Below, piece by piece: positions 55,281 to 61,761 of a stretch of DNA of 64,000 nt. The DNA lies in assembly GCA_963845385.1 (NCBI GenBank), contig CAWJRW010000006.1, positions 1,416,910-1,480,909 of the forward strand, read 5' to 3'. Source of the stretch: an uncultured Alphaproteobacteria bacterium. GTDB lineage: Bacteria; Pseudomonadota; Alphaproteobacteria; CAWJRW01. The position numbers and the translations under genes were made by a program. Positions within the stretch are counted from its first letter, which is position 1; each line of letters opens with the position of its first letter. Below the pieces are notes generated by a model. The model did no database searches. It was given only the letters and a program-made list of their open reading frames with translations, and was not told the origin of the DNA.

Positions 55281-56341
55281 CTAGATACTGACGGAGGCTT
55301 CCGTCGGGATGACGCGCTTCAGGCGCAGTCCGGCCTCGCCGAACAGCGTGCGGAACTCCTCGCGCGTCGCGCTCCAGCCCGCCGGGGGCCGCGACCATCA
55401 TGTGGACGTCCATGAGCTTGACGGTGTCGCCCCGTTGCCCGGCTGGACGACATGATCCACCACGAGCACGCGGCCTTCGCTCGCCATCGCCTCGCGGCAA
55501 TTCTTCGAGATGCGCACCAGCGCGCGTCGTCCCAGTCGTGGAGGACGTGCTTCATGATGTAGCCGTCCGAGCCCTCGGGCACGGCGTCGAAAAAATCGCC
55601 GCCCACCGTCTCGGCAGCGGTCGCGGACCTCGGGCGCAGTGACAAAGCCGCTTTCGGCCGCACTCGCGACCACTTCCGGCAGATCGTAAAGCACGCCTTC
55701 GAGCTTGCGATAGCGGCGCAGGATCGTCGCCAGCAAATGGCCATGCGCACCGCCGAGCATCGACGAGCCGCGAAAATTCGTCGAACGGATAGGCGCGCAC
55801 CACCGCGCCTGTCTCGACGGTCGAGACGCCCGCCATCGAGGCGGCAAAAGACCCGCTCCTTCTCCGGATGCTGATGCAGATATTCGAAGATCGAGGTCTG
55901 ATGCACATGCTGGAAGGGAGATTCGCCCGTCACGATCACGTCGGAGAGCGCCCCCCAGGCCTGCCAGTTGTAATCGTCGATGATCATCAGCACGAAATCG
56001 CGCAGGGAACCCGGGCGGTTGCTGCGCAGCGATTGCGCGAGCGAGGTGAGACGGAAGCGGCCGTGGGCGTCCTCGGCAAAGACGCCGAGGCTCGCCAGCG
56101 TGCGCATGACGCGGTGGAGATAGGGCGCGTGCGCGCCGACACGCTTGGCAATGGTCTCGATCTTGAGGGGCCCGCTTGGACGAGCTCGATCGGCGACGCC
56201 GAGCTTCGCCACGACGAAGAGGAGCTGCGACACCCAAAAGCCGCTGATCAGGTTGACCATGGTGTCGTGCGCAGGCGGCTTCTGGCGGCGCTTCGGTCGG
56301 CATCGAAAATCCTTCTCCACTCGCAAAGGCGCCGCTAGCAT
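55281..56341 (-). pseudogene. Class I O-methyltransferase (COMT-like: dimerisation domain plus Methyltransf_2), with at least 5 frame breaks
   Basis: Fragments are spread across three frames. They are MVNLISGFWVSQLLFVVAKLGVAD...LHRVMRTLASLGVFAED, then GGAHGHLLATILRRYRKLEGVLYDLPEVV, then GGDFFDAVPEGSDGYIMKHVLHDWDD, then EGRVLVVDHVV. The tail ends at TAG 55281. Confidence 0.75.
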
Positions 56342-56439
56342 GCCTGAACCGGCGGCCGCGTCAATCTTGCATTAACGATGCGTTAACGATGCGAAAACAA
56401 GCGCGCGGCGCAACGGCGAATGCGGGCTATTGGGGAAGA

Positions 56440-56909
56440 ATGCCCCGCGAGCCTGCGCGCTCGACTTCATCTTCCGCTTCTTGCGCGCCCGCTTCTTTCT
56501 GCTTCTCGAGGAAGATACATGCCCTCGAGCTTGAGCCCGTCCGGGATCGAGGAAGAAGACGGCATAGTAGCCTTCGCCATAGGTCGGATAATCCGCAGGC
56601 GGATCGACGACCTTCGCCTTCTCCTTCTTCAGGAATTCGTAGAGGTCGTCTACGTCCGCGCGCCGCCGGAGCTCGAAGGCGTAGTGATGAAAGCCGATGT
56701 CGCCCGTGTGGTGCGGATGGGCCATGCCCTTCTTGTCGGCTTGCGTGATCCAGAACATGGTCTTGCCGTTGTTCCAGCCGGCGACTTGGCCGAGCTCCCA
56801 TTCGAGGAAGAAGCCCATGAAGCAGAGAAGCTTGTCGTAGAAGCGCTTGGACTTGTCGAAGTCGCGCGACGCGGATCGCCAGATGGTCGATGCCGACGAC
56901 GCGGACCAT
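56440..56909 (-). pseudogene. Glyoxalase/bleomycin-resistance/dioxygenase (VOC) family protein, with at least 2 frame breaks; the 3' end is uncertain
   Basis: MVRVVGIDHLAIRVA is in ORF 56427..56909. FFLEWELGQVAGWNNGKTMFWITQ...HHYAFELRRRADVDDLYEFLK...GYYAVFFLDP is in ORF 56372..56818. Confidence 0.65.
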
Positions 56910-56918
56910 CGGGCGCGC

Positions 56919-59824: not shown

Positions 59825-59828
59825 CCTC

Positions 59829-60590
59829 ATGCAAACCGATCTTGCCGCAGGCAGTGCAGTCTCGCGCGCGAAAGCTTTCCCGCGCCGCGTCGAGCCCGAA
59901 TGGCTGGACGAATTGCCGGCGAACGACCCGCGCGCGCTGCGCTCGCGGCGCGATCTCAGGCGCGTCAACGCCTTCATGCTGCAAGCCGCCATCATGATGC
60001 GGGCCTTGATCGATTATGCGCACGCGCCGCCGCGCCGGATCCTCGATCTCGGCACGGGCGATGGAACATTCATGCTCAGGCTTGCGCGGCGGCTGGCGAA
60101 GCGCTGGCCCGACGTCACCGTGACGCTGCTCGATCGGCAGAACATCGTGAGCGCCGAGACGCGCGCAGGCTTCCGCGCACTCGGCTGGTCGGCCAAGCCG
60201 GTCGCGGCGGATGTCTTTCAGTACTTGCGGGAAAATACGCCGCAGGTCGAAGATATCGTCACCGTGAATTTGTTTCTTCACCATTTCCGCCAGGATGAAT
60301 TGGCGCAGCTCCTCCGGCACGCAGCGTCGCGGACGAGGCTCTTGGTCGCTTGCGAGCCCGAGCGCAACGCCTTTTCGCTCGTCGCCAGCAAGCTCTTGTG
60401 GGCCATCGGCTGCAACGACGTGAGCCGCCACGATGCGGTGGCAAGCGTGCGCGCGGGCTTTCGCGGGCGCGAGCTTTCGGCGCTCTGGCCGAACAAGGAT
60501 CAGTGGACGCTGCACGAGTCCGCGTGCTTTCCCTTCACTCACTGCTTTGTCGCGCGCCGGACCGAGCGGACGATGCCCCATGACTTATGA
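59829..60590 (+). CDS. SAM-dependent methyltransferase (PKS-associated)
   Basis: It starts 4 nt after the PKS gene. Motif I is ILDLGTGDGTF. It is an intact 253 aa protein. Confidence 0.75.
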   Translation: MQTDLAAGSAVSRAKAFPRRVEPEWLDELPANDPRALRSRRDLRRVNAFMLQAAIMMRALIDYAHAPPRRILDLGTGDGTFMLRLARRLAKRWPDVTVTLLDRQNIVSAETRAGFRALGWSAKPVAADVFQYLRENTPQVEDIVTVNLFLHHFRQDELAQLLRHAASRTRLLVACEPERNAFSLVASKLLWAIGCNDVSRHDAVASVRAGFRGRELSALWPNKDQWTLHESACFPFTHCFVARRTERTMPHDL

Positions 60591-61761
60591 CGCGCTCGTC
60601 ATCGGTGCGGGACCCGCGGGCGCCACCGCAGGCCTCATGCTGGCGCGGGCCGGGTGGTCGGTAGCCCTGGTCGAGAAAAGCGTCTTCCCGCGGCGCAAAG
60701 TATGCGGCGAATTCATTTCGGCAACGAGCCTGCCGCTGTTACGCGATCTCGGCGTCGCGGACTTCTTTCTCGCGCAAGCGGGCCCCGCGGTGCGCGAAGT
60801 CGGGCTTTTCGCCGGCGAGACCCAATTGACCGCCGACATGCCCGCCGCCCATGGCTTTGGGCGCGCCTTGGGACGCGAGCATCTCGATTCTCTCTTGCTC
60901 GAGGCCGCAACGCGCGCGGGAGCCGCGCTCTTTCAGCCTTGGGCAGTTGTCCGATTGCGCCGCGATCGCGAGCGTTACCTGTGCACCATCTCTGCGAAGG
61001 ACAGCGTCGAGGAGCTCGCGGCGCGCATCGTCGTCGCGGCCAACGGCTCCTGGGAACGGAGCCCCTTGCCGTCGGCGCAGGAAAAGCCCCACAGGCCCTC
61101 CGATCTTCTCGCCTTCAAGGCACATTTTCGCGAGAGCGCGCTTCCGGCCGGCGTGATGCCGCTTCTCGTTTTCCCCGGCGGCTATGGCGGCATGGTGCAT
61201 AGCGATGGCGGGCGCGTGAGCCTTTCCTGTTGCATCCGGCGCGACCAATTGCAGCGGCAGCGCGAAAACGGGAACGGCGGCAAAGCCGCCGATGCCGTGT
61301 TCCGGCACATTCTCGAGAGCTGCGCGGGCGCACGCCGGGCGCTGAAAGAGGCACGCCTCGATGGTGCATGGCTTTCGGCCGGCCCCATCCGTCCGGGCAT
61401 TCGTCCGCGTTACGCGCGCGGCATTTTTTTCGCCGGCAACAGCGCGGGCGAGGCGCACCCCATCGTGGCGGAGGGCATCAGCATGGCGATGCAATCGGCG
61501 TGGCTTCTCTGCCGGCAGCTGATCGACAAGGACGCTCGGGCCGCGACACAAAGCGCGCTCGCCGACATCGGCAAAGCCTATGCCGAGGAGTGGGAGACGT
61601 CTTTTGCCACGCGCATCCGCGCGGCGGCAGCCTTCGCGCATCTCGCCATGCGACCTCAAGCGACGGCCGCGGCCCTGCCGCTTATCAAGCGCTTTCCGCA
61701 GATGTTGACTTGGGGCGCGCGCTTGAGCGGCAAGACCATGCAAGTCGTGCCCGCCGTGTGA
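60580..61761 (+). CDS. FAD-dependent oxidoreductase/monooxygenase (geranylgeranyl-reductase-like fold)
   Basis: MTYDALVIGAGPAGATAGLMLARAG is the GxGxxG dinucleotide fold. FFAGNSAGEAHPIVAEGISMA is also present. The gene overlaps the methyltransferase gene by 11 nt. Confidence 0.8.
   Translation: MTYDALVIGAGPAGATAGLMLARAGWSVALVEKSVFPRRKVCGEFISATSLPLLRDLGVADFFLAQAGPAVREVGLFAGETQLTADMPAAHGFGRALGREHLDSLLLEAATRAGAALFQPWAVVRLRRDRERYLCTISAKDSVEELAARIVVAANGSWERSPLPSAQEKPHRPSDLLAFKAHFRESALPAGVMPLLVFPGGYGGMVHSDGGRVSLSCCIRRDQLQRQRENGNGGKAADAVFRHILESCAGARRALKEARLDGAWLSAGPIRPGIRPRYARGIFFAGNSAGEAHPIVAEGISMAMQSAWLLCRQLIDKDARAATQSALADIGKAYAEEWETSFATRIRAAAAFAHLAMRPQATAAALPLIKRFPQMLTWGARLSGKTMQVVPAV

Follow-up and report, generated by a model that had tools for sequence, protein, structure and literature searches.

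A type III polyketide synthase operon lying back to back with an LdpA-type gene arm in an alphaproteobacterial metagenome-assembled genome: probably two separable modules

The closest described counterparts of the locus reported here are of two kinds. The first is the phenolic-lipid operon that encodes a type III polyketide synthase (PKS), a methyltransferase (MT) and a flavoprotein or other oxidoreductase; in the literature, the product path of two such operons, srsABC and pkqABC, runs from an alkylresorcinol through its methyl ether to a hydroxylated quinone. The second is LdpA, a cofactorless diarylpropane lyase that converts erythro-1,2-diguaiacylpropane-1,3-diol (DGPD), a lignin beta-1 dimer, to lignostilbene and formaldehyde via a quinone methide. 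PcfL, the second characterised member of the LdpA family, catalyses an analogous step on a beta-5 dimer. In Sphingobium SYK-6, the gene ldpB, which encodes a short-chain dehydrogenase/reductase (SDR), lies directly upstream of ldpA, an arrangement present in 97 strains. The locus analysed here occupies positions 55281-61761 of a 64,000-nucleotide stretch (the window) of contig CAWJRW010000006.1, from the metagenome-assembled genome (MAG) GCA_963845385.1 of an uncultured alphaproteobacterium. In it, a PKS, an MT and a flavin adenine dinucleotide (FAD)-dependent protein (the trio) stand divergently to four minus-strand genes (the arm), for which the original prediction had proposed a role in tailoring the polyketide made by the trio. 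The reading that we consider probable as a whole is that the locus consists of two modules, separable in evolution and placed back to back, and that the frame breaks seen in one of them are artefacts of the assembly.

The listing of open reading frames (ORFs) and the domain scans bore out the predicted set of seven genes, with their order and spacing. On the plus strand, the PKS gene (58751-59824; 357 aa) begins with a TTG start codon preceded by an AAGAGG ribosome-binding site, and its product carries the Pfam domains PF00195 (Chal_sti_synt_N, 63.2 bits) and PF02797 (Chal_sti_synt_C, 92.2 bits), each with a curated cut-off of 27. The class-I S-adenosylmethionine (SAM)-dependent MT (59829-60590; 253 aa) starts 4 nt past the PKS stop codon, and the gene of the FAD-dependent oxidoreductase/monooxygenase (60580-61761; 393 aa), hereafter the FAD protein, overlaps the MT gene by 11 nt, both as foreseen. 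The divergent intergenic region, given earlier as 260 bp, measures 261 bp (58490-58750). The arm starts at 58489 with the SDR oxidoreductase (57672-58489; about 271 aa), whose exact stop is uncertain as the 3' end is also disturbed. It continues on the minus strand with an NTF2/SnoaL_4 protein of the LdpA/PcfL family (56919-57619; about 233 aa), a VOC/glyoxalase-fold protein (56471-56909; 144 aa; PF00903) and a COMT-like O-methyltransferase, O-MT (55281-56341; about 340 aa; Pfam Dimerisation and Methyltransf_2). The Pfam domains agree with the four families named in the original prediction. Each of the arm genes is split across two or three frames.

The separability of the two modules is seen in a close relative in which, on three independent contigs, a DUF1614 gene is followed after about 200 bp by SDR-NTF2-VOC-OMT and the trio is absent. 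The arm of this relative is 81-87 % identical to that of the window. The trio together with the region upstream of it (58490-61771 of the window) is cleanly missing there, and about 200 bp (L100:2673-2869) take its place. According to the alignment and blastn colinearity, the SDR-proximal part of the intergenic region is also found in trio-less relatives, while its PKS-proximal part is common only to the relatives that carry the trio. The PKS-MT-FAD cassette thus shows a clean 3.3-kb presence/absence pattern between close relatives. Besides the trio, the unit includes about 150 bp of the sequence upstream of it, and it is located immediately past the DUF1614 stop codon.

A second line of evidence comes from 80 loci with PKS homologues of 56-73 % identity, which belong to Hyphomicrobiales, Micropepsales, Acidobacteriota, Sorangium and one planctomycete. 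When the intact orthologues were used as tblastn queries, homologues of NTF2, VOC and O-MT were found within 8 kb of the PKS in none of these 80 distant loci, and the only arm homologues detected were seven generic SDRs. The tblastx matches between the arm and the same loci were no more than composition-driven noise and were set aside. The partners of the trio itself were recovered by tblastn downstream of the PKS in 51 (MT) and 69 (FAD protein) of the 80 loci, and two inspected loci with no MT match (L022 and L048) carry a more divergent class-I MT at the same place. Since the arm is kept without the trio and is missing at the 80 PKS loci, a dedicated seven-gene cluster is unlikely, and we infer that the two pathways are independent.

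The nature of the arm is indicated above all by its NTF2 protein, which after frame correction has 1,573 homologues at E <= 1e-20, the best of them 85 % identical. The comparison with LdpA was made with an intact orthologue (P0006) that is 86 % identical to the frame-corrected protein of the window. In the PDB search, P0006 matched the LdpA structures 8ABT-8ABW with E values of 1e-52 to 1e-55 (3.4e-55 for 8ABV and 3.8e-52 for 8ABT), the alignment covering residues 5-227 with 44 % identity and including the C-terminal trimerisation arm. Eight of the nine LdpA active-site residues are kept in P0006 (Y35, D40, Y74, H97, E143, Y147, Y165 and Q170). Among them are Motif I (His97-Asp40), Motif II (Glu143-Tyr165-Gln170) and the Tyr35/Tyr147 oxyanion pair. 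The frame-corrected NTF2 protein of the window likewise contains the motifs. The gene order in the arm, SDR and then NTF2 lyase, is that of ldpB-ldpA. As the NTF2 protein is homologous to LdpA and the SDR gene lies upstream as ldpB does, the sequence comparison points to an LdpA-family aromatic-transformation operon, and so to aromatic catabolism and away from polyketide tailoring. The earlier description of this protein as a SnoaL-like tailoring protein is not supported on the same grounds.

The neighbourhoods of five more distant SDR-NTF2 pairs were also checked. No PKS was found near any of the five, and three of them have aromatic-catabolism neighbours, namely RPE65 dioxygenases at two loci, one of which also has a GMC oxidoreductase/DUF3237, and a LigAB protocatechuate-cleavage cluster at the third. 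A fourth pair has a Phenol_MetA_deg gene nearby. The source genome contains four genes of the RPE65 family (lignostilbene/carotenoid dioxygenases), located at C6:637073-638456, C6:628843-630191, C6:702017-703404 and C2:142146-143506. The first of these adjoins an LdpA-like NTF2 paralogue (C6:638960-639373), and the two look like a pair of the ldpA-lsd type. The RPE65 genes together with the NTF2 paralogue suggest that the organism may catabolise lignin-derived dimers. On contig C3 (4244-6149; 10842-12326), an NTF2(SnoaL_4)-SDR pair is present as well, and an ORF that by eye resembles DUF3237 adjoins an SDR.

In the putative pathway of the arm, the SDR would most likely reduce or oxidise a benzylic carbon, and the NTF2 lyase would then catalyse an elimination that needs no cofactor and passes through a quinone methide. 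The substrate may be a phenylpropanoid dimer from plants or lignin, or a similar compound, and the SDR-lyase core would probably perform no polyketide-tailoring step. A supposed SnoaL tailoring cyclase is in this way re-read as a candidate member of the recently described LdpA/PcfL family of lignin-dimer lyases. Pairs of this SDR-lyase type abound in soil metagenomes, as the 1,573 homologues indicate.

Several observations weigh against the reading of the locus as two unrelated modules with an LdpA-type arm. The ninth active-site residue of LdpA, His183, is not kept, the aligned residue in P0006 being Asp; in LdpA this residue contacts the beta-guaiacyl phenol, and its mutation lowers the activity about fivefold. 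Homologues that share no more than 40 % identity with LdpA were inactive on DGPD. No closeness of the SDR to the LigD/L/N/O group was detectable: generic SDRs lead its PDB matches (E 5e-28), and none of the best 60 is named as a C-alpha-dehydrogenase. The O-MT orthologue has 6C5B, CalO6, AlpH and MmcR as its closest PDB entries, all of them O-MTs acting on phenols in natural-product pathways; one of them, CalO6, acts on a resorcylic acid. Finally, a relative of the L093 type has the same seven genes, all intact, with about 83 % nucleotide identity and colinearity over 14 kb, and the more distant L115 has the same seven genes as well, the arm being 75-85 % and the trio 63-74 % identical. The juxtaposition in the window and in the L093-type and L115-type relatives indicates that the divergent adjacency of trio and arm is old, and the shared intergenic region might allow their co-regulation.

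A rival reading would be one extended, lineage-specific cluster, in which the SDR, NTF2, VOC and O-MT proteins tailor the alkylresorcinol of the trio under a shared bidirectional promoter. In its favour, trio and arm are divergently adjacent in three lineages, one of them fairly distant, all four arm proteins come from common tailoring families, and natural-product phenol O-MTs such as CalO6 and MmcR are the closest to the O-MT. However, besides the persistence of an intact arm where the trio is absent and the lack of NTF2, VOC and O-MT homologues at the other PKS loci, the NTF2 protein has the catalytic set of LdpA, which acts on p-hydroxybenzylic alcohols, whereas an alkylresorcinol has no such group. 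Moreover, SDR-NTF2 cores occur widely where there is no PKS, and the trio already has its own MT and oxidase. We therefore regard a single seven-gene cluster as rather unlikely. Co-conservation of the seven genes holds for the L093-type and L115-type relatives, where they are adjacent and divergent, but neither for the 80 PKS loci nor for the trio-less relative. Likewise, the arm does consist of common tailoring families according to Pfam, but the homology of its NTF2 protein to LdpA and its persistence without the trio speak against its use as a polyketide-tailoring set. A related proposal, that in this alphaproteobacterial lineage an arm composed of an LdpA-type lyase, the SDR, the VOC protein and one or two O-MTs was recruited beside the alkylresorcinol cassette and acts on its product, is given little credence here. 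If true, it would lead to a new class of elaborated phenolic lipid, with the trio gained or lost as a unit. The closest PDB entries of the VOC protein are uncharacterised glyoxalase-family proteins only. Elsewhere in the genome (C1:51261-53775), two COMT-like O-MTs are encoded in tandem and share 42-45 % identity with the O-MT of the arm.

The original prediction had noted as an oddity that the arm is frame-broken beside an intact trio. An orthologue-guided, frameshift-aware alignment, for which intact orthologues from independent Joint Genome Institute (JGI) contigs (L093) served as guides, revealed 23 frameshifts in about 3.2 kb of the arm (SDR 9, NTF2 4, VOC 4 and O-MT 6); the trio has none. 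With paralogues from the same genome as guides, an identical frameshift count was obtained for three of the arm genes. After frame correction, all four proteins are full length, with 0 stop codons in 978 aligned codons, and are 87 % (SDR), 86 % (NTF2), 85 % (VOC) and 83 % (O-MT) identical to their intact orthologues. The cofactor and catalytic motifs are intact, the SDR keeping TGSGRGFG/NNAG/YxxxK. Measured against the L093 relative, the ratio of nonsynonymous to synonymous substitutions (dN/dS) amounts to 0.12-0.15 in the arm (0.133 in the SDR), 0.13-0.21 in the trio and 0.14-0.22 in the flanking genes, so the arm is under purifying selection like its neighbours. Since there are no stop codons, the identities are 83-87 % and the dN/dS of the arm equals that of its intact neighbours, the breaks are best read as indel errors of the assembly.

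The genome-wide distribution of frame breaks was estimated with a codon-usage Viterbi model trained on the long ORFs of the genome, which counts same-strand frame switches that lie off gene boundaries. The source genome (3.09 Mb in 10 contigs) has about 2,150 such frameshift-like switches, or 7 per 10 kb, spread over all 10 contigs. They are strongly clustered, with a median of 1 per 3.2-kb window, zero in 27 % of these windows and a maximum of 17; the 17 calls in the arm tie this maximum, and the trio has 0. Other dense clusters affect the genes of a FliG/FliN/FlbD-type regulator, FlhA/FlhF, a CzcA-type pump and HpnH/squalene-hopene cyclase (shc), as well as IscR-SufS-SufB and FadA/FadB, and rlmN is likewise affected. 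These densely broken genes read through perfectly as conserved proteins. The direction of the shifts is biased in the same way, the +1:-1 ratio being 1604:545 in the genome (about 75 % +1) and, in the arm, 14:3 by the hidden Markov model (HMM) and 18:5 by the guided alignment; 18 of the 23 arm frameshifts are one-base skips, with the 3:1 bias of the genome. As controls, isolate genomes and short-read assemblies gave 0.3-0.6 calls per 10 kb, and the loci from 'MFD' MAGs gave 4.0 compared with 7.0 in the source genome. We take the 'MFD' MAGs to be long-read assemblies. The source genome is rated 73 % complete, a score that may partly reflect its genome-wide frame breaks.

It could be argued that the four arm genes are true pseudogenes, which decayed once they had lost their function, with selection maintained on the trio. 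The contrast between 23 breaks in 3.2 kb and none in the adjoining 3.1 kb would agree with such decay, as would the fate of a neighbouring second O-methyltransferase gene (OMT2, described below), which has truly been lost to repeat elements. Nevertheless, the uninterrupted frame-corrected proteins with intact motifs, a dN/dS equal to that of functional neighbours, the equally dense break clusters in housekeeping genes, an indel direction bias matching that of the whole genome and a level of breaks similar to the 'MFD' MAG loci and more than 10 times that of isolates and short-read assemblies make true pseudogenes highly improbable. We conclude that the 23 breaks in the arm are most likely indel errors, the MAG assembly being error-rich and probably built from long reads, and that the arm is presumably intact in the organism. 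This explanation is indirect, as it is drawn from the assembled sequence itself. The difference between arm and trio noted earlier is real in the assembly and has parallels elsewhere in the genome, but it is most likely no sign of decay. What looks like a decayed arm beside an intact trio would stem from the patchy consensus quality of the MAG and not from biology. Pseudogene calls in the source genome are accordingly not trustworthy without the reads.

The PKS of the trio is the only type III PKS in the source genome, and its exact 357-aa product is already on record in the database. Alignment with PKS18 of M. tuberculosis confirmed the intact Cys-His-Asn triad that had been predicted, C152, H281 and N314 corresponding to C175, H313 and N346 of PKS18. 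PKS18 (1TED) is also the closest solved structure in the PDB search, with a full-length match at E 1.7e-45. The next matches are a mycobacterial chalcone synthase (CHS)-like protein and the rice alkylresorcylic acid synthase; tetrahydroxynaphthalene synthases (THNS) of the RppA type are far more distant, and ArsC is absent among the best 60 PDB matches. Trp236 of the PKS is aligned with L266 of PKS18, the position that corresponds to W281 of ArsB and G284 of ArsC and acts as a switch between resorcinol and pyrone closure (PMC7064976, PMC6274091). The presence of Trp at the ArsB-W281 position favours the formation of resorcinol by aldol closure. A Cys occupies the tunnel position of PKS18 C205. 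Based on these features, the PKS is predicted to be a long-chain alkylresorcinol synthase.

The two other trio proteins are less well placed. The MT shows the Pfam domains Methyltransf_25/12/23 and a match to the PRK06202-like NCBIfam family that is below the cut-off. It has more than 4,400 homologues, none of them characterised by name, and no solved relative was found in the PDB search. The FAD protein has the Pfam domain FAD_binding_3 and matches the NCBIfam geranylgeranyl-reductase family with 105.7 bits, below the cut-off; its PDB matches are weak and consist of flavin monooxygenases and halogenases, with the best E value of about 1e-10. A reading of this protein as a halogenase was rejected because these matches are weak and FAD_binding_3 and the geranylgeranyl-reductase family score higher; the motif WxWxIP was not spotted by eye, and no tool check was made.

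Judged by gene order and translational coupling, the trio is a phenolic-lipid operon of the srsABC/pkqABC/hidABC kind, as had been proposed, and the Trp236 residue and the long-chain enzyme PKS18 as closest solved structure agree with this assignment. Its chemistry, substrates and products can be inferred by analogy with those systems. The type III PKS would load a long-chain fatty-acyl starter and add three malonyl units, and ring closure by aldol condensation would give a 5-alkylresorcinol. The SAM-dependent MT and the flavoprotein could then methylate and hydroxylate or oxidise the alkylresorcinol, and the end product may be a methoxy-alkylresorcinol or a phenolic lipid of the alkylbenzoquinone type, as in srsABC, pkqABC and hidABC. 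A different outcome, in which the trio makes alkylpyrones or chiefly an alternative respiratory quinone of the pkq kind instead of a structural or protective alkylresorcinol lipid, is a possibility of some weight, although not the expected one. PKS18, the closest solved enzyme, is a pyrone synthase, pyrones are often formed in vitro by resorcinol synthases according to the literature, and pkqABC, which is of identical design, is described as serving low-oxygen respiration; the Trp at the ArsB-281 position, on the other hand, speaks against pyrones as it favours aldol closure.

On its far side, the arm adjoins a region in which the window differs from its relatives. These have a second, convergent O-MT gene (OMT2) between the arm and cox11, while in the window the OMT2 guide alignment recovered only a remnant of its last ~17 codons on the plus strand (55213-55263). 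The rest of the slot (54345-55232) is a non-coding stretch of dispersed repeats, in which blastn found no match to L093/L099 and the scans found no Pfam or Rfam match. One element of the slot, 400-620 bp long, has at least 10 copies in the genome with 78-90 % identity (for example at C6:2133236, C6:1904190, C6:704345, C2:178238 and C2:332255), and shorter repeats of 70-120 bp occur in dozens of genomic copies. Elsewhere in the window, three Rfam families score above the gathering threshold: an mmgR/suhB small RNA (sRNA; 16715-16789, minus strand), a thiamine pyrophosphate (TPP) riboswitch (31401-31523, plus strand) and a tRNA (15074-15145, minus strand).

Compared with the known lyases, the NTF2 protein of the arm shares 44 % identity with LdpA of Novosphingobium aromaticivorans (NaLdpA, Saro_2805; the Sphingobium SYK-6 enzyme is SLG_12650) across the fold and the C-terminal arm, and the His-Asp dyad, Glu-Tyr-Gln triad and Tyr oxyanion pair are all conserved in it. 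It differs from LdpA in the replacement of His183, and the SDR of the arm is not demonstrably of the LigD/L/N/O/LdpB group. The arm also continues with a VOC gene and one or two O-MT genes, which are not described for the ldp locus, and, unlike in the LdpA systems, no lignostilbene dioxygenase adjoins it.

A limited literature search found no characterised type III PKS trio from Hyphomicrobiales and no product of one. The trio resembles srsABC of Streptomyces griseus and pkqABC of Mycobacterium smegmatis and Streptomyces sp. MNU77 in the three-gene order of type III PKS, MT and flavoprotein/oxidoreductase, a likeness of gene order and functions. It differs from them in its host, an alphaproteobacterial MAG, and in an MT that is a class-I Rossmann enzyme of the uncharacterised PRK06202-like family (below the cut-off). 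At the position of Trp236, PKS18 has Leu and ArsC has Gly, and both of these enzymes make pyrones. The cyanobacterial hidABC and the planctomycetal mtr-fdo-t3pks operons encode the same three functions, the comparison being one of functions, and alkylresorcinol synthase activity has been demonstrated for their PKS in the literature. Their usual order, MT-oxidoreductase-PKS, is unlike that of the trio, but the hid variant hidC>hidA>hidB has the same order. The window would thus add an alphaproteobacterial member to the widespread PKS-MT-flavoprotein operons for phenolic lipids.

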